64,000 nt of DNA, taken from NCBI GenBank assembly GCA_034439715.1, contig JAWXAY010000010.1, forward strand, positions 1-64,000, read 5' to 3'. A program made the translations under genes and the position numbers. The notes beneath the pieces were generated by a model. It was not told where the DNA came from and searched no databases. It was given only the letters and a program-made list of their open reading frames with translations. This DNA comes from Pseudomonadota bacterium (lineage in GTDB: Bacteria > Bdellovibrionota > Bdellovibrionia > Bdellovibrionales > SG-bin7). This document shows positions 4,328 to 20,168 of the stretch, piece after piece (the stretch's first letter is position 1; each line of letters begins with the position of its first letter).

Positions 4328-5215
4328 TTAATAGAGCGTGAACGTCTTTACCAGTTTTGCAGCAATCAGATTTTCAAGTTTTCTCTGGGCTGATACCAGC
4401 CAAATTTCCTCATGCACACCTTTCAGTGTCCCTATGTTCTGGAGTAATCCCTCTTTAATCAAATCCTCACTGGACACTTCTGAAAGCGGGGCAAGCCCGA
4501 TTCCTTGTTTCGCAAGCAGTATTTGCAAACTGGTGTCCTGAGTTTCTGCTGTGGGAATAATGCGGATATTCTGAAGCTTAAAATAGTGGTTTAAATCATG
4601 TCTTAGTTTGCTATGGACCGTCGGAAGCACGAATGGTTGATCATTAAGAGAGTGAGGAAATGTTCGCTTAAGTTTTCGGAAAGCTGGACTGCCAAATATA
4701 GACACGGGTAGTTTTGCCACCGATTTTGAAAACGCCTGCCTTATCTCTAAACCCGGAGGCGGATAATTAGACAAAATCAGATCAATTTTATGATTGTAAA
4801 GCTCGCGAAATAACTCGTCACCCTTTCCTTCAAGGATAGAAACTGTGCAAGTGGAAGAAATTTTATAAGCTTCCATAACCAAAGAAAGTATTACGCTTTT
4901 TGGTACACTATCAAGGGCGCCAACTTGCAGATGAGTCTGGTCGCCACTCGTGCGATCTTGTAGCACCTCAATCATTTCATCGCCAAGCCTAAATATTTCA
5001 TTTGCATAATCAAGAGCTGCTTTTCCAGCCTCAGTGAGAATCATTTTTCGATTGCGACGTTCAAAAAGAGGTTTCCCAATCATTTCCTCTAGCTGTTTAA
5101 GTTGAGTGCTAAGCGTTGGCTGGCCCAAACGTAGCTTTTCGGCAGCCTTTGCAATTCCACCCTGCATAGCGATTGTTCGGAAATAGTAGAGGTGATGATA
5201 GTTTAGCCACTGCAT
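4328..5215 (-). CDS. LysR-family transcriptional regulator, NhaR-like
   Basis: N-terminal LNYHHLYYF...HTH motif typical of the NhaR subgroup; 295 aa. Confidence 0.8.
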   Translation of the reverse strand: MQWLNYHHLYYFRTIAMQGGIAKAAEKLRLGQPTLSTQLKQLEEMIGKPLFERRNRKMILTEAGKAALDYANEIFRLGDEMIEVLQDRTSGDQTHLQVGALDSVPKSVILSLVMEAYKISSTCTVSILEGKGDELFRELYNHKIDLILSNYPPPGLEIRQAFSKSVAKLPVSIFGSPAFRKLKRTFPHSLNDQPFVLPTVHSKLRHDLNHYFKLQNIRIIPTAETQDTSLQILLAKQGIGLAPLSEVSSEDLIKEGLLQNIGTLKGVHEEIWLVSAQRKLENLIAAKLVKTFTLY

Positions 5216-5324: not shown

Positions 5325-5696
5325 ATGTTCACGGTTGTTTTTAAAAATCTAGATAAATCAGATTTAACAAAAGAAGCTGTAATCACAAGACTGCAAGAAA
5401 CCATCGATCGCTTTCCCGATCTTGTAGGGCATAAAATTACAGTAACTTTAAGCATGGAGAATTCGCCACAGCAGGCAGGCCCCGACCATTTTACCGTAAA
5501 AGTTCATGTACGCGGCAAGAAGTATCGGGATGTGCTGATTGAGAAGTCAGCAATGAACTTATACTTGGCGCTAGCCGACGTGAACGAACATCTTTTAGAA
5601 AGACTGAATCGCATGGGAGACCGCACAAGAGTAAAGCTGCGAAGTAAACGGATACGATTATTAGACCATCCAGATGAAGTTGAGGATGGGTTATGA
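5325..5696 (+). CDS. Ribosome-associated inhibitor / hibernation factor (HPF/RaiA-like)
   Basis: 123 aa; beta-alpha-beta-beta-beta-alpha pattern resembling the sigma-54 modulation protein family; overlaps htpX start by 4 nt. Confidence 0.45.
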   Translation: MFTVVFKNLDKSDLTKEAVITRLQETIDRFPDLVGHKITVTLSMENSPQQAGPDHFTVKVHVRGKKYRDVLIEKSAMNLYLALADVNEHLLERLNRMGDRTRVKLRSKRIRLLDHPDEVEDGL

Positions 5697-6598
5697 CTTG
5701 GTTTAAAAGAATTGGTTTATTTTTAGCGGTGAACGTCTTAGTGATGGTCACCATTTCGCTGATCTTGAATGTTTTGGACGTGAAGCCCTACCTAACCCCG
5801 TATGGCCTCAATTACCAATCTCTTATGATTTTCTGTTTAGTCTGGGGTATGGGCGGAGCCTTCATCTCACTCGCACTTTCTCGAATTATGGCGAAGTGGA
5901 TGATGGGAGTTAAAATTATTTCTCCTGATACGAAAGATTCCGATCAACGCGAACTCCTTCAGATGGTCCACGTACTTGCAAGAGCCGCACATTTGCCAGC
6001 CATGCCTCAAGTGGGAATTTATGAATCCCCCGAAGTAAATGCATTTGCTACGGGTCCAACTAAATCACGTTCTCTAGTTGCTGTTTCGAGCGGACTGCTT
6101 CAACGCATGAAGCACGCTGAAGTTAATGGCGTATTGGCACATGAAGTAGCCCACATTGCCAATGGGGACATGGTAACAATGACACTGATCCAAGGAGTAG
6201 TGAACGCTTTTGTGATGTTCCTTGCTCGTGTTATTGCCTTTGCTCTTACAATGGCTGGGCGAAAAGATGATCAGGAAAGCCAAGGAACTCCGTTTACATA
6301 TTATGCAGTTCAGATGATTTTAGAAATCGTTTTCATGATACTTGGTTCGGTGGTCGTTGCTAAATTCTCTCGATACCGTGAATTTAGAGCCGACGCTGGC
6401 GGTGCTCGGCTGGCTGGGCGAGAACATATGATTCAGGCATTGGAATCATTAAAGAAAACATTTGAAAGCGTTAATCCAACGGAACAGCCCGCTATTGCGG
6501 CTTTAAAAATTTCAAGCAGGCCTGGCGGAATTATGAAATTATTTTCAACGCATCCACCACTTGAAGAGCGAATCAAAAGATTAAGAGCAGCTGTTTAA
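5693..6598 (+). CDS. htpX: Zn-dependent protease HtpX (M48)
   Basis: HEVAHIANGD HExxH motif, N-terminal TM helices, 301 aa. Confidence 0.85.
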   Translation: MTWFKRIGLFLAVNVLVMVTISLILNVLDVKPYLTPYGLNYQSLMIFCLVWGMGGAFISLALSRIMAKWMMGVKIISPDTKDSDQRELLQMVHVLARAAHLPAMPQVGIYESPEVNAFATGPTKSRSLVAVSSGLLQRMKHAEVNGVLAHEVAHIANGDMVTMTLIQGVVNAFVMFLARVIAFALTMAGRKDDQESQGTPFTYYAVQMILEIVFMILGSVVVAKFSRYREFRADAGGARLAGREHMIQALESLKKTFESVNPTEQPAIAALKISSRPGGIMKLFSTHPPLEERIKRLRAAV

Positions 6599-7903: not shown

Positions 7904-8545
7904 CTAGTACAGCTGCCCCAGAATCAGCCTTGGATCGGGATAAATTCGTAAAGCCATTTGTAAATCTAATGTGGAAACTACGCCTGGCATATCGCAACAA
8001 TTTGGTTTGATGAGAGAAATTTGTACGTGAACATGCGGTGGCCATCCACCATTTTCTAATTTACTTCCAACATGTGCAATCACATCTCCTTTTTTAAAGG
8101 ACGCTCCTTTTTTCAGATCTTCAATCGAATGATGGCGTAGGTGTCCATAAAGCACCCAAAATCGTAATTTTTTAATCTGATGAGACGTGATCAGCGTTCC
8201 GCCGTAGTCACCCAAAGCAGAGTTTACTGTTTTGCAAAATATTTTTCCGTCTAAGAAGGCATAGACGGGAGTACCTTCCGGTGCACCTAAGTCAATCCCC
8301 ATATGGACGTCTCGTTTTTGTTGATTGCATCCTTTTTCTAAAAACAGGTCCAAATTGTACATGTTGGGTCTTTGCTCATTATATTTACCAATCCCAAATG
8401 GATTCAATGCTGCTCTATCTGAATTATTTCCGTTGGCAAAATCAAAAACTTCATACTGATCTGGTAAGATGATGACAGGGTGAAAATCATAACCGCCAAA
8501 CAATTTAATTAAATTCAAAGATTTGTTCCCCATGAAAGGCGCCAC
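7904..8545 (-). CDS. M23 family peptidase (LytM domain)
   Basis: HMGIDLGAPEGTPVYA ... GHL ... HVHVQI motifs. Confidence 0.7.
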   Translation of the reverse strand: MAPFMGNKSLNLIKLFGGYDFHPVIILPDQYEVFDFANGNNSDRAALNPFGIGKYNEQRPNMYNLDLFLEKGCNQQKRDVHMGIDLGAPEGTPVYAFLDGKIFCKTVNSALGDYGGTLITSHQIKKLRFWVLYGHLRHHSIEDLKKGASFKKGDVIAHVGSKLENGGWPPHVHVQISLIKPNCCDMPGVVSTLDLQMALRIYPDPRLILGQLY

Positions 8546-9806
8546 AAATTTTTGCAGGAAGTTTTTGTCCGATGAAGCAACTGTTTTTTGAAAGACTTGA
8601 AATGTCCTTCTCGGTAAAAATAGATGGCTCCGCTAGTAGATCGACTAGAACACCGTGAAATTTTGAGCCGAGTTCAAATTCATCAAGTCCATTTTTTAAA
8701 TTCAGGAAATTTGCGGGATTTTTTGAAAAAACCTGCACTAGTCTTTGGCTCGTTATTTTGCCATTCTTCCAAGCCTCAATAAGAACTTTTAAAGTGGTTT
8801 CTAAACCTAATGTTCCAAAAGCCGCATGCTCAAAAGAGCCTGTCTTTTTTGGAGGTTCGTGAGGCGCATGATCTGTCGCCACAAAATCAATGACCCCTTC
8901 TGTAAGCCCATTCCAGAGAGCAACTTGATCATTTTTAGAACGGATCGGTGGATTCATCTTGAAAGACGAATTTTCTCCGTCAATTGTTTCGGTATTGAAA
9001 AAAAGATGGTGTGGACTTACTTCAGCGGTAACACGTAGGCCTTCAGCTTTGGCGGTTTTTACGAGCTGGACGGTTTTAGCACACGATACATGTAGAACAT
9101 GATACCGAGCCCTAGGATACCGTCTTAACAATCGTAAATCGCGCTCGACCATTTGCCACTCGGGCTCCTCAGGGTAAAGCTTCACCCCAAGCTTTTGTTG
9201 CGCGGGCCCTGATGCAAGCACGCCACCATGGCCAAGGTACTCGGCGTGCTGCAGGAGAGGGATATTTAGATCTTGAAGTCTTGAAAAAGCTAAAGTCATA
9301 ACCTCATCTTCTAAGACACCGAGACCGTCATTGGTGAAGGCGACGACACCGGAACGAACCAAGGTTTCAAAATCAGTAAGCTCAGATGAATTTAAATTTT
9401 TAGTAATTGCCGCCGACCACAAAACCGAGACGCCATAGTTTTCTTCAAACTCTCGAACCTCATTTTTTCCTTGGTTGAGCACTTCGACGCAGTCAATTGT
9501 CGGCTGTGTATTTGGCATTGTTAACACTGCCGAGTAGCCGCCCTTTAGCGCAGCTAGCAAACCCGTTGCGGCAGTTTCCTTTTGCTGCTGGCCAGGAACT
9601 CGTAAATGAGCTTGCACATCAACACCCGAAGGAAGAAGTGCCTTGCCGCCAAGGTCGATGACCGTGCCCACATTCGCTATTTCAGACTTCATTTGTAAAA
9701 TGCGTCCGTCCTTGATCAGAAGATCCATCTTTTTTGGCTCATGATCGGACGACCACACGCTGGCATTTTTTAATACATAGAGGCAACAATTTTTTTTCTT
9801 CATCAA
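8505..9806 (-). CDS. Dihydroorotase-like amidohydrolase with altered metal-binding motif
   Basis: DHOase class I pattern with TDHAPH and VAFTNDG, but the first HxH motif reads DVQAHLRVPG (His to Gln); 4-nt overlap with sbtB-like gene. Confidence 0.6.
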   Translation of the reverse strand: MMKKKNCCLYVLKNASVWSSDHEPKKMDLLIKDGRILQMKSEIANVGTVIDLGGKALLPSGVDVQAHLRVPGQQQKETAATGLLAALKGGYSAVLTMPNTQPTIDCVEVLNQGKNEVREFEENYGVSVLWSAAITKNLNSSELTDFETLVRSGVVAFTNDGLGVLEDEVMTLAFSRLQDLNIPLLQHAEYLGHGGVLASGPAQQKLGVKLYPEEPEWQMVERDLRLLRRYPRARYHVLHVSCAKTVQLVKTAKAEGLRVTAEVSPHHLFFNTETIDGENSSFKMNPPIRSKNDQVALWNGLTEGVIDFVATDHAPHEPPKKTGSFEHAAFGTLGLETTLKVLIEAWKNGKITSQRLVQVFSKNPANFLNLKNGLDEFELGSKFHGVLVDLLAEPSIFTEKDISSLSKNSCFIGQKLPAKICGAFHGEQIFEFN

Positions 9807-10111
9807 ACTCTTTCAAATTTTTCAGGGCGTAAAATTGAAATATCAGATGAGTAAGTGATCAGAGAGTAATTTTCGAAAAACTTCTCTGCCAGCGCTTTCA
9901 TAATTTTTAAGGCAAGTTGCGGCTCTACGACGATTTCGATTTTTGATTTTAAATCAGGAATTTCGCCACTGCTTTTTTCTCCGTTGCCTTGACCCCTGAC
10001 TTCTGTGACGGTGAAGCCTGTGGCCCCGAGGTCTTGACTGATGGTCAAAATACTTGAGCTTAAAACGGGCTCGCAAATAATGGTGACAAGTTTAAAATTC
10101 ATGAGTTTCAT
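9803..10111 (-). CDS. sbtB: PII-like signal protein SbtB
   Basis: 102 aa; strong similarity pattern to cyanobacterial SbtB (KLVTIICE...GFTVTEVRGQG...YSLITY); immediately downstream of sbtA. Confidence 0.75.
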   Translation of the reverse strand: MKLMNFKLVTIICEPVLSSSILTISQDLGATGFTVTEVRGQGNGEKSSGEIPDLKSKIEIVVEPQLALKIMKALAEKFFENYSLITYSSDISILRPEKFERV

Positions 10112-10120
10112 AATCTCTCC

Positions 10121-11113
10121 TTATCCAGCAAGCCATTCGGCGAATTTAAAAAACAATGGAATTCCTACGACTAAATTAAATGGAAAAGTGACGGCTAAAC
10201 TCGCAGTTAGATAGTAAGTGGGATTAGCCTCAGGCAAGGTCATGCGAACCGCAGGTGGTGCTGCGATGTAAGACGCACTCGCTGCCATCGCTCCAAGCAC
10301 CGTGGCACCTCCGACAGAAAGACCAGACCAGTGCCCCAGAAAAACACCCAATGCACCATGGAGAATGGGTAACAATATCCCGAGGGGTATGAGGGGTAAA
10401 CCTACTTTTTTAAGATCAGAAAGTCTGGCTCCTGCGACAATTCCCATTTCTAAAAGAAACAATACGAGAGCGCCCTTGAATCCTGTTTCAAAAAATGGCT
10501 TTATCGGCTCGTAGGCATTTGCTCCCATGAGAAGACCTATCACCAAACCACCAACCAGCAAAATCATAGAGCGACCTGTTAGAATTTCATGAAAGATGGC
10601 AGACTTGGTTTTTTTATCGCCACTTGATACTAATGAATTATTTTTCGCTCGTTTCAGCGCGCCTATAGCTAGTGCGATATGAATGCCCGGACTTTCTAGC
10701 AGAGTTAACAGCGCCGGCATAAAACCCTCTGCCGTTTTCCCCATGTGTTCGATAAATTGATTTGCCGCAATGAATGTAACCGCGGAAACTGAACCGTAAT
10801 GTGCGGCCAGTGCAGCCGCATCGACCTGTCCAAATCGCCCCAATTTTCGCATGATTATATAGGCCGAAATTGGAGTAACGCATCCCAAAACGAGAGTTGC
10901 AAAAGCCGGCCAAGCAATAATTTGAAAAGTACTTTCAGACAGCTCAACTCCGCCTTTTAATCCAATCGCTAATAAAAGATAGATGGATAATGAAGAGTAG
11001 AGATCTTTTGGCAGACTTAGTTCACTCTTCATTAATTTCGTTACAACTCCAAGCACAAACGCTAGCACTATGGGTGATAATAAGTTTGTTCTTAAGATTT
11101 CGAATGCGGTCAA
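10121..11113 (-). CDS. sbtA: SbtA-family (DUF897) sodium/bicarbonate transporter-like permease
   Basis: 330 aa, about 10 TM; SPIVLAFVLG, IGLKGG and DAAALAAHYGSVSA motifs parallel cyanobacterial SbtA. Confidence 0.7.
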   Translation of the reverse strand: MTAFEILRTNLLSPIVLAFVLGVVTKLMKSELSLPKDLYSSLSIYLLLAIGLKGGVELSESTFQIIAWPAFATLVLGCVTPISAYIIMRKLGRFGQVDAAALAAHYGSVSAVTFIAANQFIEHMGKTAEGFMPALLTLLESPGIHIALAIGALKRAKNNSLVSSGDKKTKSAIFHEILTGRSMILLVGGLVIGLLMGANAYEPIKPFFETGFKGALVLFLLEMGIVAGARLSDLKKVGLPLIPLGILLPILHGALGVFLGHWSGLSVGGATVLGAMAASASYIAAPPAVRMTLPEANPTYYLTASLAVTFPFNLVVGIPLFFKFAEWLAG

Positions 11114-11130
11114 AGTTCAGTCCTTTATTT

Positions 11131-12006
11131 TCAAGGGTTACAAAATTCACATTCAGACGAGTCGAGTTCACGCTGACCATCAGGCCTTGGCCTCTCTTCT
11201 TTTGTTTTACACCGTGGACATGCGAGCAATACGGCTTTAGCAATTCGACTAGGGACTCCACAATCACCGCACGGAAGGCCAGGAATTCCTTCGACAACTG
11301 TAAACCCTGGAAACTCGCAAGTCGGACAAAGTGAGTTAAGACTTTCGATTAACTTTACTCCCGCTTTATGAATCGCGTTTCTTCGGGTAGCATTGTGGCA
11401 GGCCCGCAGATCGGTCATTAGTACAACCCGCGCGGTTTTTGAGGCGACAAAACAATCAAGCATTGCTTGGCCGACTGCTCGCTCTGTATGAAGCCCCTTA
11501 AAGAGCGGTGTTAACAAACCCTCGGGGTGCACGATCACCCCATGTTCGGGGAAATTAATTTCTTTTAAAAATGCTCGAAAATCATCTCGGGGTCCCAGAA
11601 TTTTTTCTGCGTGAATTGGATCTGTCGCCAAATATTCAGCATAAATTTCGCTCCCAGTTTCGCGGTCCCACAACAGAAGTGACTCAAGGTCTGTTTGCAT
11701 AAAACCAATCAGTGGATGCGGACCGAAACTGCCTTCGCTGGCAAGAATCAATTGAGCTTCAGAGTGTTGGTCCGCAGCCGCTTTTATTTTCTTTCTTAAA
11801 GTTTCCCGAACCGATCCCGTACGTTCGACTTCGCCCGAGAAGGTACCAAACTCATCGGTATCAATAAGCGTCGCAATACAGTTCACACCAAGTTCGGCCA
11901 ACAATGGTTTAAGAAGCGCTTCTTTGCCATGCTTTGTCGCAAAGTAAAATGTCTTGCCATGAAATGGATGTGGGGCGGCAACTGCCATAGCCTTAAGTAT
12001 CGCCAA
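11131..12006 (-). CDS. Hypothetical protein with C-terminal 4x CxxC zinc-ribbon cluster
   Basis: CPTC...CGDC...CPRC...CEFC in the last 60 aa; first gene of the sbtAB operon. Confidence 0.4.
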   Translation of the reverse strand: MAILKAMAVAAPHPFHGKTFYFATKHGKEALLKPLLAELGVNCIATLIDTDEFGTFSGEVERTGSVRETLRKKIKAAADQHSEAQLILASEGSFGPHPLIGFMQTDLESLLLWDRETGSEIYAEYLATDPIHAEKILGPRDDFRAFLKEINFPEHGVIVHPEGLLTPLFKGLHTERAVGQAMLDCFVASKTARVVLMTDLRACHNATRRNAIHKAGVKLIESLNSLCPTCEFPGFTVVEGIPGLPCGDCGVPSRIAKAVLLACPRCKTKEERPRPDGQRELDSSECEFCNP

Positions 12007-12046: not shown

Positions 12047-12061
12047 ATCTATTAAACAGAT
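12047..12061. promoter_or_regulatory. LysR-type T-N11-A box (ATCTATTAAACAGAT)
   Basis: Dyad in the 61-bp divergent intergenic region between the sbt operon and the LysR gene. Confidence 0.35.
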
Positions 12062-12067
12062 AGGCTG

Positions 12068-12940
12068 GTGGGCGTGGAATGGCTTAACTATCATCATCTC
12101 TATTATTTTTGGACCGTAGCTAAAGAACAAAGCTTCACTAAAGCGGCTTTGAAATTGCGAATTGCACAATCGGCCGTGAGCTTTCAAGTAGCGCAGCTTG
12201 AGGATTTTTTAGGAAAAAAGCTGATTCTGCGTTCGACCTCAAAAAAATTAGTCCTCACTGAAGAAGGTCAGATTGTTTTCAATCAGGCCGAAGAGATTTT
12301 TCGGCAAGGCAAAGAGCTTGTCGATGGTATCAAAGAAGGCGGAATTCAATCCACACTAAGAGTTGGCGCACTTGGAAGTTTATCAAAGAATCTTCAAATT
12401 AGACTACTAAGACCAGTCATCGATCGAGCTGATTTTGAAATCACAGTCGATGTCGGAGACGCTCAAGCCTTGTTGAGTCGTCTTCAAACATTTAAATTAG
12501 ATGCCATTCTTTGTGATGTTCCTTTTCCACATTCGGAAAATGAACCCTTAATCCAGCGCGAAATAGCGCGCGAGCCCATTTGTCTGATTGCCCGAAAACT
12601 TAAGCAGAGTACACCACTGCAAGTACGACTTGCTAAATATGGAATATATCTTCCTGCGCGCAGCAATCCAGTTACTTCCGAAATAGAATCATTTCTCAAA
12701 AGTCAAAAAGATCGAATCAAGATTAAAGGTTATATTGATGATATTGCTTTACTTCGCTTGTTAGCAATTGAAACCGATAGTGTTGTAGCTATCCCGCGAG
12801 TTGGAGCCGCTCGAGAACTGCAAAATAAAACAATTGTGGTGCAACATCAGTTTAGATCTATGTATCAAAAGTTCTATCTCGTGCTTCGCCAAAATGGATC
12901 ACGTTCAGAAAAAATACTTAGGTTTTTGGATCAAGTTTAG
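12068..12940 (+). CDS. LysR-family regulator, NhaR-like (paralog of 4328-5215)
   Basis: GTG start; WLNYHHLYYFW...HTH; divergent from the sbtAB operon. Confidence 0.8.
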   Translation: MGVEWLNYHHLYYFWTVAKEQSFTKAALKLRIAQSAVSFQVAQLEDFLGKKLILRSTSKKLVLTEEGQIVFNQAEEIFRQGKELVDGIKEGGIQSTLRVGALGSLSKNLQIRLLRPVIDRADFEITVDVGDAQALLSRLQTFKLDAILCDVPFPHSENEPLIQREIAREPICLIARKLKQSTPLQVRLAKYGIYLPARSNPVTSEIESFLKSQKDRIKIKGYIDDIALLRLLAIETDSVVAIPRVGAARELQNKTIVVQHQFRSMYQKFYLVLRQNGSRSEKILRFLDQV

Positions 12941-13722: not shown

Positions 13723-16191
13723 TTATACTTCGATTGGTGTCGCGATCATGTTTTCAATGGATGCATAAATATCTGTATCTAATTCTGGCGAAGAGATCGT
13801 GACGATTAAGCTGTACCTTGCATCTTTATCAGTGTGGCCTTCGCGGTGTTTCTCCCTCCACCAACCAACGACAGGGAAAACAGCAATGTGCGCCTTTTTA
13901 GCGAGATCAGATGCTTTGCCTGTCCAAAAATCAGAATGAAGCGAACCCTTCGTGCGAATCTGAGGGCCGAGATACCATTCATCGGCGTCACCGGTAGAAG
14001 TAACGCTATCTCTGCCAGACTCTTCATTCCACCTTGCTCGGTTGATTCGCACTTTGAATTGGTCCTGAGATTCATCAGCTGTTTGCATTTCGAATCTCAA
14101 TCCGTGTGATTGATACCGAAACTTTCCGGTCCATCCTCGACGCGCGGGATAGGGTTCAATAAAATAAGATAAAGTTACTCTCATAGTAACGACGGTTTCA
14201 CCAAGTGCTTCTAAAGCATCTATTGGCCAGGGCAGCGCATGTAAATTCATTTCGTTCATAGAGTCGCCGTCAAAAGGCCGAAGGCTATCTTGAGCTATTA
14301 ATGTTAGATGGTTACTTGCACTGAAGAGCGCTCTTTCAAGGCTCGGAACTCCATAACCGCAGCAACGAAGTAAGGTCTCTTTCTGCATTCTTGTGAAGGT
14401 TGGATAACGTGTAAGCATCTGCTGCGTCCAGTATGCAGAATGTGCGATCATTCCGCGCACTGTTTCGGGCCAAAACTGCGGATATTTTTGTGCGATCCTG
14501 GCAGCAATATGAGAGGCCTCTGCCGTTGCCGCACTTGTATCGGCCATCCAAGTAAAAAATGATCCTCCGGTGCGGATTCGATCAGTCGAAAGTAACAACA
14601 TCGAGTCGGGACGAACAACTCGGCCCGAATCCGAATGTATTGCAGCATTACCGCCCTCGAATACGACATCAGGTTTGATTGGCCATTTTCCTCTTTCCCA
14701 GGTTAGCGAAGTGGAACTGCTTGGGCAAAGATCTCCAGCGGGAGCAAGCGAACTCCATCCTGCATAAGCGGGATCAGTGATCTCAATTTTTTCAGTAAAG
14801 GCTCCGACAGTTAGAGCGTTCCATGATTGGGCAGGATCGTGAATGCTCTCAACTTCATTCACTGCCGGGTAATCGTTGAATGTTGTCTCGTCGGTGTTAC
14901 CTGCAGAGATAATAAATAAATGTCTCTTATCTTCAATCGTCAGGCCCACGCAAATTTTATCGACGGCAGCAGACCAAGAAGAGGGTTTGCCTCTGTCTCT
15001 TCCATCGAGAGCAGTGACTGCCATCGAAAGGATTCGATCATTAAATGGATCGATTGACGTGACGTGCGCGACCGCTTCTTCCGTGAGATTTCCATAGAGC
15101 TGAGGATCATTCGCTCCGGGAGGCGGAGGCAACAGCTTTACGGATTCGAGCTGGCAAGGAACAGTTATTCTTGTCGTACTTAATAGTGCGGAGTTTAAAT
15201 CGCGGTACAATACGATTCCAGCCATTCCAGATCCGTGGCCATCATGATCGTCTACGCCCCACGCAGGCATGAGACTGATCTGTTTATTCGCTGGCAAATA
15301 AGATTGAATCAAAGGGTGAGTTCGACTGATGCCAGTATCGAGAATGCAGACTGTAGGTACATCCCCATTTTGAGGATCAGTCAGGCCAACAAGAGCATCA
15401 ATCCATTCACGCTGTTCTGGTGGATACATTGATAAGAACTCAGATACAGTTTCCTTTGCTCTTCTAAGTTCAGCTATCAAATCAAATGATTCGATAGATA
15501 TGGCGAGTTGAGCAGGCTCACAGTATGCCAAGATAACTTTTCGGTCTGGAAAATCGATTACTCCCGTACCGGTTAAGATCTGGCGGCGATCAGCAACCTG
15601 TTTAAACCGATCAACAACATCTTCGACATCTCCTCGTAACCAAACTTCCCACCAAATTTTTTCCTGATCGGCTGGAAACAGCTCAGGCATATCAGTCCAA
15701 AAAGATTGAAGGACCGCTAGTCGAATGCTCTCGATTCCATTAACCAAAGGTAAATTTTTAGGTTTTCCGCTTTTTAAATCTTCGTCTTTGTATTGCTCAA
15801 CCTTTTTAATAAAAACAGAAAGCTTTTCGTCAGGTACGAAAACTGTAGCGATTACTTGTGGCTTCGAATCGACATCAACTGTTTTTACTGAGACTAGCTC
15901 GATGTCTTTTGACGGCAAATCAAGGCTTTCAATGGCCAGATCGTGGCCAGGCTTACCTGAAAACTCCAAAAATATTCCTTTGGATTCCAGCTGCTCCTGC
16001 GCCGCCTTTTGCTTGAGCTCGGGAATATCTCGACCAATATTTTTTAGCTCTGATAATAATTTTCTAGCATGGGACTTTCTGGGCCGACTCGGAATCGATA
16101 GGCTCGAACCAAAGGAACTTGTTGACGTGTATTTTTCAGATACAGCACTACTATCGATTAAAAAATGTCTAAGATTTTTTCGAACCGGCAA
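13723..16191 (-). CDS. S8 family subtilase with long N-terminal extension (IetS-like)
   Basis: ILDTGI (Asp), HDGHGSGMAG (His), ADTSAATAEASHIAA (Ser) motifs; 822 aa; directly downstream of the AAA ATPase. Confidence 0.7.
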   Translation of the reverse strand: MPVRKNLRHFLIDSSAVSEKYTSTSSFGSSLSIPSRPRKSHARKLLSELKNIGRDIPELKQKAAQEQLESKGIFLEFSGKPGHDLAIESLDLPSKDIELVSVKTVDVDSKPQVIATVFVPDEKLSVFIKKVEQYKDEDLKSGKPKNLPLVNGIESIRLAVLQSFWTDMPELFPADQEKIWWEVWLRGDVEDVVDRFKQVADRRQILTGTGVIDFPDRKVILAYCEPAQLAISIESFDLIAELRRAKETVSEFLSMYPPEQREWIDALVGLTDPQNGDVPTVCILDTGISRTHPLIQSYLPANKQISLMPAWGVDDHDGHGSGMAGIVLYRDLNSALLSTTRITVPCQLESVKLLPPPPGANDPQLYGNLTEEAVAHVTSIDPFNDRILSMAVTALDGRDRGKPSSWSAAVDKICVGLTIEDKRHLFIISAGNTDETTFNDYPAVNEVESIHDPAQSWNALTVGAFTEKIEITDPAYAGWSSLAPAGDLCPSSSTSLTWERGKWPIKPDVVFEGGNAAIHSDSGRVVRPDSMLLLSTDRIRTGGSFFTWMADTSAATAEASHIAARIAQKYPQFWPETVRGMIAHSAYWTQQMLTRYPTFTRMQKETLLRCCGYGVPSLERALFSASNHLTLIAQDSLRPFDGDSMNEMNLHALPWPIDALEALGETVVTMRVTLSYFIEPYPARRGWTGKFRYQSHGLRFEMQTADESQDQFKVRINRARWNEESGRDSVTSTGDADEWYLGPQIRTKGSLHSDFWTGKASDLAKKAHIAVFPVVGWWREKHREGHTDKDARYSLIVTISSPELDTDIYASIENMIATPIEV

Positions 16192-16206
16192 TTAAACCCT
16201 CACCAT

Positions 16207-17190
16207 TCACTTTGACGAGAGGGTTCGTTCTTTTAGACAATTCAGAACCATTTCTGTAGTGATCTTATTGTTATCCGGACTGAGAATCTGAAGTTTTATC
16301 GAGTCTTCGCATGCTCTAGAAATTTCAGCGAAGCTAAGTCCTTTGCTCTCATTTACGATTTTTGTCATATCGAGAGATTTCACTCCAAGATTTGCAAATT
16401 TACTTTTAATCGTGAGTACAATCAAATCTTCAGTCGGGAGTCGATATTGGATGCAATCATCGAAACGTCGAAACAGGGCCTTGTCTAAAAGATCAGGATT
16501 ATTAGTGGCCGCGAGAATTATACTTTCGGAATTACTTTGCTCTAAGAATTGTAGAAATGAATTGAGTACTCGGCGAATTTCTCCAACGTCATTGGAATTT
16601 GTTCGATGAGAACCAATGGCATCAAACTCATCAAAGAAATAGACTCCGCGAACTTTATCAATGTTATCAAATATGAGTCGCAACTTTGCAGCTGTCTCAC
16701 CCATAAATTTTGTAATGAGGCCATCAAGCAAAATTGTATAGAGGGGTAAGTTAAGCTCTCCGGCTAACGCAAATGCAGTTTTTGTCTTTCCAGTTCCGGG
16801 TGGACCAAATAGGAGAACTTTTCTTCGAGGAGACAACCCATGATTGGTGATCTTTTCCTTTTGTTTTTGTTCAAGGATAATTCGATACAATCTTGCGTTT
16901 GTTTCTTCCGGAAAAATTAAAGAGGACAATCGTTCCTTAGGATAGGAAACCGAAAGTAAACCTGCCAGCTCACCTCTAGGTTGAGAGATATGGGCCACAG
17001 CGGGTTGTTTTGTCCTTCCAAAACCCTTTTCTTTTGCTTCTTCTATAAGTTGTCGGATTTCGTCTGCAAGTTTAGAATGTCCTTGCTTAGCGGCTTGCGC
17101 TGCGACCTGCATGGCGACAGAATAAAAGCGGCTGTCATCCCCTTCGGAATGGCTTTTGATCAAAGCTTTTAACTGATCGGAATTAGCCAT
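16207..17190 (-). CDS. AAA+ ATPase (IetA-like)
   Basis: Walker A GPPGTGKT, Walker B FFDEFD, sensor ATNNP and LFRRFD second region of homology; 327 aa. Confidence 0.75.
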   Translation of the reverse strand: MANSDQLKALIKSHSEGDDSRFYSVAMQVAAQAAKQGHSKLADEIRQLIEEAKEKGFGRTKQPAVAHISQPRGELAGLLSVSYPKERLSSLIFPEETNARLYRIILEQKQKEKITNHGLSPRRKVLLFGPPGTGKTKTAFALAGELNLPLYTILLDGLITKFMGETAAKLRLIFDNIDKVRGVYFFDEFDAIGSHRTNSNDVGEIRRVLNSFLQFLEQSNSESIILAATNNPDLLDKALFRRFDDCIQYRLPTEDLIVLTIKSKFANLGVKSLDMTKIVNESKGLSFAEISRACEDSIKLQILSPDNNKITTEMVLNCLKERTLSSK

Positions 17191-17234: not shown

Positions 17235-17753
17235 TCATTGTCGATATAATTCGGTCAATCCGTGCTGTTCCAAACTTTGGGCGGAAGCACTCCAGTTTTT
17301 AAGCACGTTAAACACCGTTTTCACATGCCACTTAGCCCCCTTCTTTCGACAGGGGACATTTAGGCGGTTCATTTCTTCGACTATCTGCCTGTAAGAGAGC
17401 CCTTCCTTACGAAAGGCCTTCAGTTGATTGATTGCCCTTAGCTCGGAAGGGTTGGAAGTAAGCTGCCCGGCTATCCGCCGAGTCCCAAATTTTTCCGGTT
17501 CCAAGATCAACCGATCTGGGGGTCTTAACGGAATCTGATAGTGCATCAAATACCGCCGAACCGTCTTTCTGGAGGAAAGAGTTTGACCGGCGATTTCATC
17601 CATTGACGCCCCTTCTTCGAGGTATTTCTGCCGGAGGAAACTCTCGTTTCTAAATGACTTTACGGTCGTGAACTGCAATACATTGGTCATTGGCAGCGGA
17701 GGAAACAATGGTTGCGTCCATCCGTCGAGACTGAGCCAATTTTTCTCGGTCAT
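17235..17753 (-). CDS. HTH plus recombinase-domain protein lacking a catalytic resolvase domain (serine-recombinase remnant or regulator)
   Basis: LSYRQIVEEMNRLNVPCRKKGAKWHVKTVFNVLKN resembles the Recombinase domain of large serine recombinases; HTH segment MDEIAGQTLSSRKTVRRYL; start taken at internal Met. Confidence 0.4.
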   Translation of the reverse strand: MTEKNWLSLDGWTQPLFPPLPMTNVLQFTTVKSFRNESFLRQKYLEEGASMDEIAGQTLSSRKTVRRYLMHYQIPLRPPDRLILEPEKFGTRRIAGQLTSNPSELRAINQLKAFRKEGLSYRQIVEEMNRLNVPCRKKGAKWHVKTVFNVLKNWSASAQSLEQHGLTELYRQ

Positions 17754-17948
17754 TATGATGCATTTGAAATAACGAGGGTTTTTGAAATTACCCACCTTTT
17801 TCAAAAGTAAACAAAAAGTCAGAAAATCAACCACCACCCACGACGTTTTGAATTCTCACAGGAATTTTTATATGATGGGATTCGCGTGTATAAGTGAGGG
17901 GTCGAGTGTCGTCGACCACCATAAAAATGATCGTCCAAAGAGTTATTC

Positions 17949-19412
17949 ATGCGAATAATACCGATCATATTTTTCTTTCTTGGGTGCGCTTCCGTCGAGC
18001 GCCAAACGCCTCTTTCGTCTGCAACTATGAATCGAGTTTTATTTCAGTTGCGAGTTGGTAAAGAGTCACTCGCCAGTCGTCAGGCCCAGATTGCGATTAC
18101 AGTTCCAAACTCAGTCAAAAAATTTCAAGCACCGATATGGTATGGGAATGCTCCCTTATTTCTGAAATATGTTTCGGATATTAAAGCAGTGGACTCTGAG
18201 GGAACGACGTTATCTACAAGGATTGAAAATAATGTCGTTGAGGTAAAGCCCAGTAAGGCACCCGTTTACACTCTGAACTACACCTATAACGTACCTCAGA
18301 AAATTTCAGGTGCAGTCGATCTATCGATTCCCGTGCTAAATGCACAGTATGGCCGCTTTGACAACAACCTCACTTTTCTGGCGCCAGAAGGTTTGTCGGA
18401 CATGCCAGCTAAATTGACTGTTTCAGCTCCAAAGAATTGGAAAATTGCAACGGGCTGGGGAATGCAAAACGAAAATCTTGTTCCTAAAGTTTCTCAACTT
18501 ATTTCCGGTATGATCGCGATGGGAAAATATAATTTTTCAAGCGCTCAGGTTGGAGAAACGAACGTCGACTTTGGTATTATTGGAGATTTTCCCCATGATA
18601 TTGTAAAAAAGCAGTTTATCAGAGTTTTAGAAAGCCAGCAGAATGCTGTCGGACCACTAGCATCACGTTACATTTTAGTTGTCCTGCAGCCGGCGGTAAC
18701 AGATTCATGCAAGGGGACATCACTAACGAACGCTTTGGTTGTGAATATTCCGCCAAAAACAAAACTTGAACCATTTAATTTCCAAGCTATCGGCACGATC
18801 AGCCATGAACTTTTCCATCAATGGAACGCACATTACATTACGCCGGCACTTGAAGAAGGCGCGTACTTGTTTACAGAGGGCTTCACCAACTATTTTGCGG
18901 TTGCGGCCTTAGTGCAAGCTAAGCTAGTGCCAGAAAAAGCATTTGGGCGCTTTTTGTGGAAATATAGAAGCATGCTGGAAAGCAATCCAAGATATCCTGG
19001 AGCGGACTATGCAGCAATTCAGGCAGGATTATCAAAGGATGAGAAGCTACTAGATCTGGCCTATACTAAAGGGCCTTTTGTCGCGGTTCTTTTAGACTTG
19101 GCACTGCGAGAAGACACCGGCGGGAAAGAGTCTTTGCCCACTTGGTTTCAAGCTTTAGGAAAACAATTTGGCGGAACAAAGGGTTATCTTGTTCAAGATC
19201 TTCGTGAATCTGTGGTGAAACTGACTGGGAAGGCTGAAGGCAAAGCCGCTAAGGTTTTTGATCACGCCTTTTTGGGTGGAGAGAAATTGGATCTTGATAC
19301 TTTGTTTTCTGATCTTGGAATTAAATGCTCAAAGACTGGCGAATGCAGTCTTTCTAAACTTTCCCCTGAAAAGAAAATTTTGCGATCAAAATCATTTTCG
19401 GCAAGAAACTGA
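17949..19412 (+). CDS. Lipoprotein zinc metallopeptidase (gluzincin, M1/M61-like)
   Basis: Signal peptide plus lipobox FLGC; HELFHQW HExxH followed by downstream Glu. Confidence 0.5.
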   Translation: MRIIPIIFFFLGCASVERQTPLSSATMNRVLFQLRVGKESLASRQAQIAITVPNSVKKFQAPIWYGNAPLFLKYVSDIKAVDSEGTTLSTRIENNVVEVKPSKAPVYTLNYTYNVPQKISGAVDLSIPVLNAQYGRFDNNLTFLAPEGLSDMPAKLTVSAPKNWKIATGWGMQNENLVPKVSQLISGMIAMGKYNFSSAQVGETNVDFGIIGDFPHDIVKKQFIRVLESQQNAVGPLASRYILVVLQPAVTDSCKGTSLTNALVVNIPPKTKLEPFNFQAIGTISHELFHQWNAHYITPALEEGAYLFTEGFTNYFAVAALVQAKLVPEKAFGRFLWKYRSMLESNPRYPGADYAAIQAGLSKDEKLLDLAYTKGPFVAVLLDLALREDTGGKESLPTWFQALGKQFGGTKGYLVQDLRESVVKLTGKAEGKAAKVFDHAFLGGEKLDLDTLFSDLGIKCSKTGECSLSKLSPEKKILRSKSFSARN

Positions 19413-19425
19413 AAGGTTATTAAAC

Positions 19426-19722
19426 CTATGCCTTCTTGGCGACTCTCGGCACTAAGCTGATCGCAATATCGCAATCAACAATGCTTGCCGCTTTTGAAAG
19501 AGTTTGTAGAGATACACCCACGTGGTCATCAAATACACGATTTGTTGTCGTTGGACTGTGGAAAGCTTTGCGAAAAGCGTTTTTCTTCACCTTCTTGCGC
19601 CTGATCTGTTTTTCGAGTTGATTAACAAATGTGCGCTTGGCAGCCTTTGCCGCAACTTCAGTTTCAAGATTCTCTTCAGCCAAAAAATCGTCAAAAGACG
19701 AGCCCGTTAATTTGTTTTTCAT
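19426..19722 (-). CDS. HTH-type antitoxin (XRE-like) of a type II TA pair
   Basis: 98 aa; HTH VGVSLQTLSKAA; 4-nt overlap downstream of the toxin gene. Confidence 0.55.
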   Translation of the reverse strand: MKNKLTGSSFDDFLAEENLETEVAAKAAKRTFVNQLEKQIRRKKVKKNAFRKAFHSPTTTNRVFDDHVGVSLQTLSKAASIVDCDIAISLVPRVAKKA

Positions 19723-20168
19723 TTCTTTCTCCTTGTCGTCTTCGCGACGGTTTCAGCAGATTTTTGTTCATGAATCCATTCCTTCATTCGCTTCCACGCC
19801 AAATCGAGTTCTGACTTTGGAGTCTTCCTCGTGGTCTTACGAAAAAAGTGAACGAGGACCATGAGGTTGTCATAAACAAAAAATAAAGTTCTATACTCCA
19901 ACGTCTCCACTGTATGCCGAGCCTCGTAAACCGACTTTTCGTATTGACCTGAACTGGATCGCAAGCGGTCAACGTAAGGTCGATCTACTCGCCAATTTAA
20001 CTCCACAAAACGAATGTCTTCGCCCACAACCGTTTTGGTGGGCCGACCTAAGTCTCTCAAAATCTCCTTCACAGGCTCATGACCAGCTGGAGTTTTGAAA
20101 AAGACCGCGTTGATTTTCTTCTTGATATCTATATCGGCCACATTTCCAATGTACTTTATAGAGTACAT
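19719..20168 (-). CDS. RelE/ParE-superfamily toxin, phage Gp49/HigB-like (DUF891)
   Basis: LEYRTLFFVYDNLMVLVHFFRKTTRKTPKSELDLAWKRMKEW matches the Gp49-like killer-protein signature; true start may be internal. Confidence 0.6.
   Translation of the reverse strand: MYSIKYIGNVADIDIKKKINAVFFKTPAGHEPVKEILRDLGRPTKTVVGEDIRFVELNWRVDRPYVDRLRSSSGQYEKSVYEARHTVETLEYRTLFFVYDNLMVLVHFFRKTTRKTPKSELDLAWKRMKEWIHEQKSAETVAKTTRRKK

Follow-up and report, generated by a model that had tools for sequence, protein, structure and literature searches.

The stretch of DNA analyzed here, 64,000 nucleotides of contig JAWXAY010000010.1 (referred to below as the window), carries a row of five genes on its minus strand that encode a protein of the DUF6671 family, homologs of the bicarbonate transporter SbtA and its PII-like partner SbtB, a dihydroorotase (DHOase, PyrC) and an M23-family metallopeptidase-like protein. 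A gene for a LysR-family regulator lies divergent to them. We favor the reading that these genes form a LysR-controlled operon for the uptake of dissolved inorganic carbon (DIC) by a non-photosynthetic, Bdellovibrio-like heterotroph, with DUF6671 as an optional accessory of the pump, and we consider it somewhat better than an even bet. This reading builds on directly observed gene identities, gene order, conservation of a regulatory box, co-occurrence statistics, a fusion of DUF6671 to the pump subunit DabA and a fold prediction; the substrate, the inducing signal, co-transcription and any activity of DUF6671 are inferred, with sequences, a predicted structure and genomic context as the basis. 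Given that the closest genome locus belongs to a Pseudobdellovibrionaceae metagenome-assembled genome (MAG), sequence comparison places the host among the relatives of Bdellovibrio.

The SbtA-SbtB pair, its probable operon and its regulator

An original prediction, made from the sequence alone, had placed the five minus-strand genes at positions 7904 to 12006 and the plus-strand LysR gene from 12068 onward. All six are present in the list of open reading frames (ORFs) at those coordinates, and profile searches agree with the labels they had been given. The permease matches PF05982 with 377.1 bits (cut-off 27) over residues 14-325 of 330, and the PII-like gene (PF00543) lies directly downstream of it, confirming that the two are an SbtA-SbtB pair in the cyanobacterial order. 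An exact-sequence look-up did not find the window SbtA in the recorded assemblies. Among solved structures, the permease has a single relative, Synechocystis SbtA (7cye; E 4.8e-30), to which it aligns in two stretches, 11-161 and 172-328, with a low similarity of 108 bits. For the Synechocystis protein, docking and mutagenesis led to the proposal that S114, Y140, S324 and S327 hydrogen-bond bicarbonate, and main-chain atoms hold Na+ (PMC8352866). The window SbtA keeps the equivalents of G111, S114, A320, S322 and S324 in the crossover that holds Na+ (G111, A320, S322) and substrate, but has Leu in place of Y140 and Ala in place of S327, with Synechocystis as the sole source of the reference site. 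Membership in the SbtA family is firm, and bicarbonate is the presumptive substrate.

The closest solved relative of the SbtB homolog is TTHA0516 of T. thermophilus (2cz4, E 3.6e-14), followed by the SbtB of Cyanobium 7001 (6mm2, E 3.3e-9) and Synechocystis slr1513 (E about 1e-5). Its 102-residue translation closes with RPEKFERV, and Cys13 is its sole cysteine; the C-terminal Cys pair that serves as a redox switch in Synechocystis SbtB (Cys105/Cys110) is absent from it. Since such a pair is not universal in SbtB proteins, its absence is a difference that does not exclude the window protein from this family.

We also scanned an SbtA alignment against metagenome contigs, which yielded 80 independent loci with 43-67% identity to the window SbtA. 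A PII-like gene follows sbtA at about 51 of these loci, and a beta-carbonic anhydrase gene is found at 19, DUF6671 at three, DHOase at one and M23 at none. The common module is therefore SbtA-SbtB, at times with carbonic anhydrase, and the frequency of the anhydrase ties this SbtA clade to bicarbonate. The rarity of DUF6671 at these loci indicates that it is optional rather than required for SbtA function. Published work on heterotrophic Flavobacteriia counts SbtA among the genes for anaplerotic carbon fixation (PMC5932025).

As in the Synechocystis slr1512/slr1513 system, which is controlled by the LysR protein CcmR/NdhR, a permease of the same Pfam family is followed directly by a PII-like gene and accompanied by a LysR-family regulator. 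Unlike the cyanobacterial arrangement, the window has a regulator that is NhaR-like and adjacent rather than CcmR, as well as co-oriented genes for DUF6671, PyrC and M23. The organism, moreover, is a heterotroph resembling Bdellovibrio, and the genes inspected around the locus include no carboxysome or RuBisCO context.

The spacing at every gene border is close enough for one transcript. The DNA between DUF6671 and sbtA is a 17-nt spacer with an AAGGA ribosome-binding site followed by the TTG start of sbtA, and sbtB starts 9 nt past sbtA after a spacer with GGAGAG. The sbtB stop and the DHOase start overlap within TTGATG by 1 nt (TGATG) or 4 nt (TTGA), and the M23 gene starts 14-41 nt inside the 3' end of the DHOase gene, depending on the start chosen. 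The 4-nt overlaps that had been claimed throughout are therefore limited to a single junction, that of sbtB and DHOase. A scan for consensus promoters and terminators found no more sites than in shuffled sequence, and thus speaks neither for nor against a single transcript. The reported 61 bp between divergent start codons is correct for the maximal ORFs (12006 and 12068); homolog lengths suggest that DUF6671 probably starts at the ATG at 11988, giving a protein of 285 residues and a gap of 79 nt.

The regulator has both domains expected of a LysR protein (PF00126, 69.7 bits; PF03466, 53.6 bits). Its best NCBIfam model is NhaR (NF008284), with 117.2 bits against a cut-off of 219, and by sequence it is thus NhaR-like and no NhaR ortholog. 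The intergenic region contains the palindrome TATCTGTTTAATAGAT, of the form ATC-N9-GAT, which occurs once in the whole window against 0.06 occurrences expected. An identical box stands at the same position in locus L005, and the copy in L089 differs from it by a single substitution. In L003, L004 and L009, whose clusters encode isocitrate dehydrogenase (IDH) and DUF6671, a similar ATC-N9-GAT box directly adjoins the start of the LysR gene; the TATCTATTT half of the box is kept in L001 and L077; and Bacteroidota loci have a conserved box of their own, CATAA-N9-TTATG, at the equivalent place. Related LysR genes (140-575 bits) stand divergent beside DUF6671 clusters in L001, L003, L005, L009 and L077, and a divergent LysR gene is found in L170 as well. 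Among these related Bdellovibrionota, the same type of LysR faces DabB-DabA-DUF6671 in L001 and IDH-DUF6671 in L003, L009 and L077. The original prediction of a divergent, NhaR-like LysR protein with a T-N11-A site is thus upheld as to the domains and as to a palindrome that is unique in the window and conserved in relatives, and the site is a good candidate for binding of the regulator.

The window holds a second NhaR-like LysR paralog (4328-5215, minus strand), which is 29% identical to the operon regulator and has an N-terminal WLNYHHLYYF motif in common with it. An HPF-like gene (5325-5696, PF02482) and an HtpX-like gene (5693-6598) lie divergent to it.

Relatives of the operon define which of its genes are constant. 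The closest genome locus, L006, whose DUF6671 is 88% identical to that of the window, has the order DUF6671-SbtA-SbtB-DHOase, with its upstream flank cut off by the contig end. Locus L089 (DHOase 92% identical) has a LysR fragment divergent to DUF6671-SbtA-PII-DHOase-M23, and L170 (DUF6671 77% identical) has LysR divergent to DUF6671-SbtA-PII-DHOase, followed by an unrelated gene of 1332 codons. In L005 (DUF6671 78% identical), LysR faces DUF6671-SbtA-PII with no DHOase gene after them. DHOase directly follows DUF6671, with no SbtA, in L088 (DHOase 69% identical), and DHOase orthologs with 62% and 55% identity (L086 and L087) lie beside DsbD with no sbt genes near. The stable core is thus LysR divergent to DUF6671-sbtA-sbtB, counted in all four close relatives with a visible upstream flank. 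Within this genus-level group, DHOase has often been added to it, following in four of five relatives, and M23 less often. A search for the full five-gene arrangement elsewhere bore out its first four genes in three relatives, with the LysR gene visible in L089 and L170; M23 after DHOase is confined to the window and L089, which is one of the two relatives in which the downstream gene is visible, and was seen at no other locus surveyed.

DUF6671 and its gene neighborhoods

DUF6671 relatives form 1580 clusters at 50% identity (E<=1e-3) and are present in at least 595 species genomes, from Bdellovibrionota, Bacteroidota, Bacillota, Cyanobacteriota, Chloroflexota, Verrucomicrobiota, Pseudomonadota and Planctomycetota. 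We surveyed the neighborhoods of 80 species-level loci, the best-scoring of these; they are mostly from Bacteroidota, and the counts are therefore not phylogenetically independent. Neighboring genes were taken as the longest ORFs of at least 70 codons, a crude definition, clustered without prior labels, named by Pfam and NCBIfam and scored by profiles within 6 kb of DUF6671.

SbtA is near DUF6671 at 29 of the 80 loci (28 on the same strand), DabB-DabA at seven and beta-carbonic anhydrase at six, and one or more of these DIC genes is present at 38. An NADP-dependent IDH (NF006673, 763 bits) is found at 25 loci, mostly directly upstream of DUF6671, and a threonylcarbamoyl-AMP (TC-AMP) synthase of the Sua5/TsaC family (TIGR00057) at 19, mostly directly downstream. 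DHOase genes on the same strand occur at 13 loci and LysR genes at 31 (28 on the opposite strand). Altogether, 55 loci have at least one of these enzymes or pumps, and the key associations each recur in four to six phyla. In most of the Bacteroidota loci, SbtA is without SbtB after it.

The association extends to gene fusion. A single ORF of 1035 codons in L065 encodes DabA joined to DUF6671, and an independent protein of the same architecture, P0233 (1029 residues), is 62% identical to it. Two fusions this far diverged indicate that the fusion has been kept by selection and is no assembly artifact. The placement of DUF6671 is strongly biased toward DIC genes, and it is the most informative gene of the locus. 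The original prediction had treated this Cys-rich protein as a passenger.

These data also relate the locus to the DAB (DabBA)/MpsAB pumps. No Dab genes are present in the window, but the equivalent context in related Bdellovibrionota and in other phyla, with LysR facing a cluster that includes DUF6671, holds DabB-DabA instead of SbtA-SbtB, and both kinds of pump would presumably supply bicarbonate to central metabolism. Heterotrophs are known to carry DABs, with the bicarbonate feeding carboxylases (bioRxiv 10.1101/476713). DUF6671 as a DAB component has no description in the literature that we searched; a search on the term DUF6671 returned no paper, and neither did one that combined SbtA with Sua5. 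We considered whether DUF6671 might be the published third DAB subunit, DabC, and rejected this identification, since DabC, a small membrane protein, bears no relation to DUF6671.

At most of the cyanobacterial loci, ABC exporters adjoin DUF6671 instead of DIC genes. The loci with such neighbors (L024, L044, L045, L058, L082 and L085) are mostly from Cyanobacteriota, with L058 from Alkaliphilus (Bacillota). One cyanobacterial locus, L069 from Halomicronema, has the order sbtA-sbtB-DUF6671. Two families of small conserved ORFs, of about 81 and 93 codons, stand beside DUF6671 at eight or nine Bacteroidota loci each (just upstream in L012, L042 and L074, for example) and have no Pfam or NCBIfam match.

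An AlphaFold2 model of DUF6671 built with 35 sequences has a predicted local distance difference test score of 91.8 and a predicted template modeling score of 0.84. Foldseek matched this model to YjjX (E 5.5e-5) and also to Ham1, Maf and HcgB. On the basis of the model, we describe DUF6671 as having a nucleotide-binding fold like that of ITPase, Maf and YjjX, without filing it as a member of that superfamily. No sequence-level similarity to these proteins was found, and it differs from them further by about 90 extra residues in a second alpha/beta region, by a C-terminal module of eight Cys residues and by a context of DIC uptake rather than nucleotide-pool sanitation. The CxxC cluster noted earlier in the 291-residue translation is indeed present, as the four pairs CPTC, CGDC, CPRC and CEFC. 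Among 143 DUF6671 representatives (34-59% identity), H20, K22, G48, F50, R56, K67, E85, G86, E102, D193, R195, A196, R202, all eight Cys residues and the terminal N-P are conserved in at least 98%. Such conservation is in keeping with a pocket for ligand binding or catalysis that has many basic and acidic groups, alongside two predicted Cys4 zinc sites.

Dihydroorotase, proposed mechanism and alternatives

The window DHOase scores 303.5 bits with TIGR00857, above the cut-off of 279.05, and falls below the cut-off of every equivalog model (336 against 575 for NF006837, for example). The closest solved enzyme, to which it aligns over its full length, is that of B. anthracis (3mpg, 262 bits). In B. 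anthracis numbering, it retains the metal ligands H61, D151, H178, H231 and D304, five of six; Gln replaces the remaining ligand, H59, with which the HxH motif opens, and Asn replaces D150. We considered whether this QxH form marks an inactive paralog and rejected the idea, given that all 120 of the nearest homologs inspected, which are 55-98% identical and called dihydroorotase by their sources, have the same QxH/TNDG form, and that the solved P. gingivalis enzyme (2gwn) likewise has Gln at the first ligand. Gln at this position is thus probably compatible with DHOase activity, and the protein would most simply be the ordinary PyrC of its clade. No second DHOase is encoded in the 64-kb window. 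In contrast to the type I bacterial DHOase and the P. gingivalis type, the window gene lies in a proposed DIC-uptake operon and not with pyr genes.

The cluster-linked DHOases of Bacteroidota are of a different, 2gwn-like type (NF006688, 630 bits; 444 bits to 2gwn). Since these two types are not orthologous, the adjacency to DUF6671/SbtA arose at least twice. The Bacteroidota enzymes (L042, positions 9796-11148, and 12 other loci) have a type-I-style G-I-T-D-D-G where 2gwn has the G-L-K of the carboxylated lysine. These TDDG enzymes might be low-CO2 isoforms. They may also represent a bridging-ligand variant that matures without CO2.

The M23 protein has both the HxxxD (HMGID) and the HxH (HVH) motif in its translation and matches the central region of NF004799 (PRK06148, large hypothetical fusion proteins) with E 7.7e-36. 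Inspection by eye revealed no N-terminal signal sequence. The M23 domain would thus be cytoplasmic, and its gene appears to be translationally coupled to pyrC.

In the mechanism that we favor, the LysR protein would bind the ATC-N9-GAT palindrome in the divergent region of 61-79 nt and, upon a presumed inducing signal, would turn on a single transcript running from DUF6671 through sbtA, sbtB and pyrC to the M23 gene. SbtA would take in bicarbonate with Na+, and a PII-like SbtB trimer would gate it according to adenine-nucleotide status. Both proteins may be expected to work as they do in cyanobacteria because of their homology and because DabAB takes the place of the pair under the same kind of regulator and beside DUF6671. 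DUF6671 would be a soluble, zinc-containing protein with a nucleotide-binding fold that assists DIC pumps of any kind from the cytosol without being indispensable to them. It would be a regulator or nucleotide-dependent enzyme that works on SbtA or DabA, or together with them, at their cytosolic side. We propose an accessory role because the family occurs beside SbtA, the unrelated DabAB and beta-carbonic anhydrase, and fused to DabA. The DHOase would be the normal PyrC of the organism, recruited in this lineage such that the pathway from bicarbonate-dependent carbamoyl phosphate would be co-expressed with DIC uptake, and the M23 gene would be a recent, lineage-specific passenger. The boldest form of this proposal is that DUF6671 is an unrecognized, widespread cytosolic component of DIC uptake that serves both SbtA and DabAB as a zinc-bearing, nucleotide-dependent regulator or enzyme and couples import to IDH, TC-AMP synthase and pyrimidine metabolism under a LysR regulon in heterotrophs; we hold it to be a tentative idea with somewhat less than an even chance of being correct.

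Several observations weigh against the reading that we favor. Only two of the four docking-predicted bicarbonate contacts of Synechocystis SbtA are conserved in the window protein, and DUF6671 accompanies just three of the 80 SbtA loci. Of the 80 DUF6671 loci, 25 have no DIC gene, IDH, Sua5 or DHOase as a neighbor, and these include most of the cyanobacterial loci. The frequent neighbors IDH and Sua5 are not transport proteins, and DUF6671 could serve metabolism rather than pumps. A profile search over all Protein Data Bank sequences found no relative of DUF6671, the best matches being insignificant ones to zinc fingers (TraR, E about 0.2), which leaves predicted structure as the source of the ITPase-like assignment.

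The placement of IDH and Sua5 directly next to DUF6671, together with the DHOase genes near it, is the starting point of a different reading, in which DUF6671 belongs to CO2/bicarbonate-linked metabolism as an enzyme with a metabolic or house-cleaning task. It might, for example, act like a nucleotide pyrophosphatase on an adenylated or carbamoylated intermediate, within a LysR regulon that includes IDH, Sua5/TsaC, PyrC and DIC importers. Nine invariant polar residues (H20, K22, R56, K67, E85, E102, D193, R195 and R202) look like an active site, and the members of the fold family (ITPase, Maf, YjjX and HcgB) are nucleotide-processing enzymes. The maintained DabA fusion argues instead for a physical tie to the pump, no substrate can be named, and there is no sequence link to a characterized enzyme; we regard this reading as doubtful, though worth keeping in mind. 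The original prediction had hinted at a bicarbonate-to-pyrimidine supply module, in which SbtA and SbtB feed carbamoyl-phosphate synthesis and the operon DHOase is dedicated to that channel. Consistent with such a module, the DHOase start overlaps the sbtB stop, the gene holds the same place in L006, L089 and L170, a same-strand DHOase gene is near DUF6671 at 13 of the 80 loci, DUF6671 and DHOase are paired without SbtA in L088, and the 2gwn-like type of Bacteroidota points to an independent linkage. The linkage of two DHOase types to DUF6671/SbtA thus lends the idea real, though limited, support. DHOase itself, however, neither uses nor makes bicarbonate, and neither carbamoyl-phosphate synthase (carA/carB) nor aspartate transcarbamoylase (pyrB) is among the recurrent neighbors at the 80 DUF6671 loci. 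The QxH/TNDG form common to all of the nearest homologs suggests an ordinary PyrC and not a specialized copy; the gene is missing from sister lineages such as L005, and its orthologs in L086 and L087 adjoin DsbD. A DHOase is near only one of 80 SbtA loci, its linkage follows DUF6671 and not SbtA, and IDH and Sua5 are as frequent as DHOase beside DUF6671 or more so. IDH releases CO2, and TsaC/Sua5 consumes bicarbonate or CO2. Because the DHOase linkage is matched by that of these two enzymes, a general CO2/bicarbonate regulon covers more of the data than a pyrimidine channel does, and we consider the channel unlikely.

A further reading is that a Na+-responsive regulator of NhaR type controls the permease, which would be a Na+-coupled transporter that serves Na+/pH homeostasis or carries another small anion, and not a carbon supplier. 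NhaR is the best model for the regulator, the equivalents of Y140 and S327 in the docked bicarbonate site are changed, and several of the DUF6671/SbtA carriers are alkaliphiles (Alkalibacterium, Alkaliphilus and Bacillus alkalicola). The regulator nevertheless scores about half of the NhaR cut-off, the CO2-hydrating pump DabAB replaces SbtA in equivalent contexts with LysR and DUF6671, beta-carbonic anhydrase recurs at SbtA loci, and alkaliphily fits CO2 scarcity, too. A role in Na+/pH homeostasis thus seems improbable, and an operon for DIC uptake with DUF6671 as an optional accessory remains the reading that we prefer.

Genomic surroundings and significance

Table 1. Positions of the operon, its regulator and nearby features in the window
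Feature	Positions	Strand	Profile match or remark
DUF6671 protein, 291-codon ORF	11131-12006	-	PF20376, 147.9 bits (cut-off 23.8)
SbtA-family Na+/bicarbonate symporter homolog, 330 residues	10121-11113	-	PF05982 Sbt_1; TTG start
PII-like SbtB homolog, 102 residues	9803-10111	-	PF00543 P-II, 57.7 bits (cut-off 25)
Dihydroorotase (PyrC), type-I-like, 433-codon ORF	8505-9803 or 8505-9806	-	TIGR00857
M23-family metallopeptidase-like protein, 213-codon ORF	7904-8533 or 7904-8545	-	PF01551 Peptidase_M23, 57 bits (cut-off 28.7)
NhaR-like LysR-family regulator, divergent	12068-12940	+	PF00126 HTH_1 and PF03466 LysR_substrate
Palindromic LysR-type box TATCTGTTTAATAGAT	12047-12062	-	ATC-N9-GAT with T-N11-A inside; 5 nt from the LysR start codon
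S8 subtilase, IetS	13723-16191	-	122 bits
AAA ATPase, IetA	16207-17190	-	PADLOC, 253 bits
Recombinase-like fragment	17235-17837		PF07508, weak match
Gp49/HigB-like toxin	19719-20168		PF05973; 98-residue partner adjoining at 19426-19722

Just past the LysR gene, the window carries an anti-phage defense pair of the IetA/IetS type (13723-17190, minus strand), and the region that follows (17235-20168) resembles a small mobile or defense islet (Table 1). The whole window lacks tRNA genes, and no integrase adjoins the operon. Conjugative type IV secretion genes (TraC, TrbC and CagX) flank the cluster of LysR, DUF6671 and DIC genes in L089 (1-5500 and 15700-17000) and in L001 (1-1100), and L089 also holds a DarT/Macro toxin-antitoxin pair. 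The secretion genes in these two relatives and the defense islet beside the window LysR gene raise the possibility of mobile cargo, yet the operon itself has neither tRNA nor integrase beside it; the DIC cluster may lie at an insertion hotspot for mobile elements or may travel with them.

Crops and industrial microbes are now being equipped with inorganic-carbon pumps such as SbtA and DAB, and almost nothing is known of the regulation and accessory factors of these pumps beyond cyanobacteria and chemoautotrophs. With its repeated placement next to both types of pump and its fusion to DabA, DUF6671 is a concrete candidate for a missing pump component or regulator, and the conserved LysR box offers a way to approach the inducing signal. 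It would appear that heterotrophs, a Bdellovibrio-like lineage among them, keep a structured low-CO2 cluster into which housekeeping enzymes with a link to CO2 or bicarbonate are drawn, and such a cluster would bear on why many bacteria require CO2 for growth.

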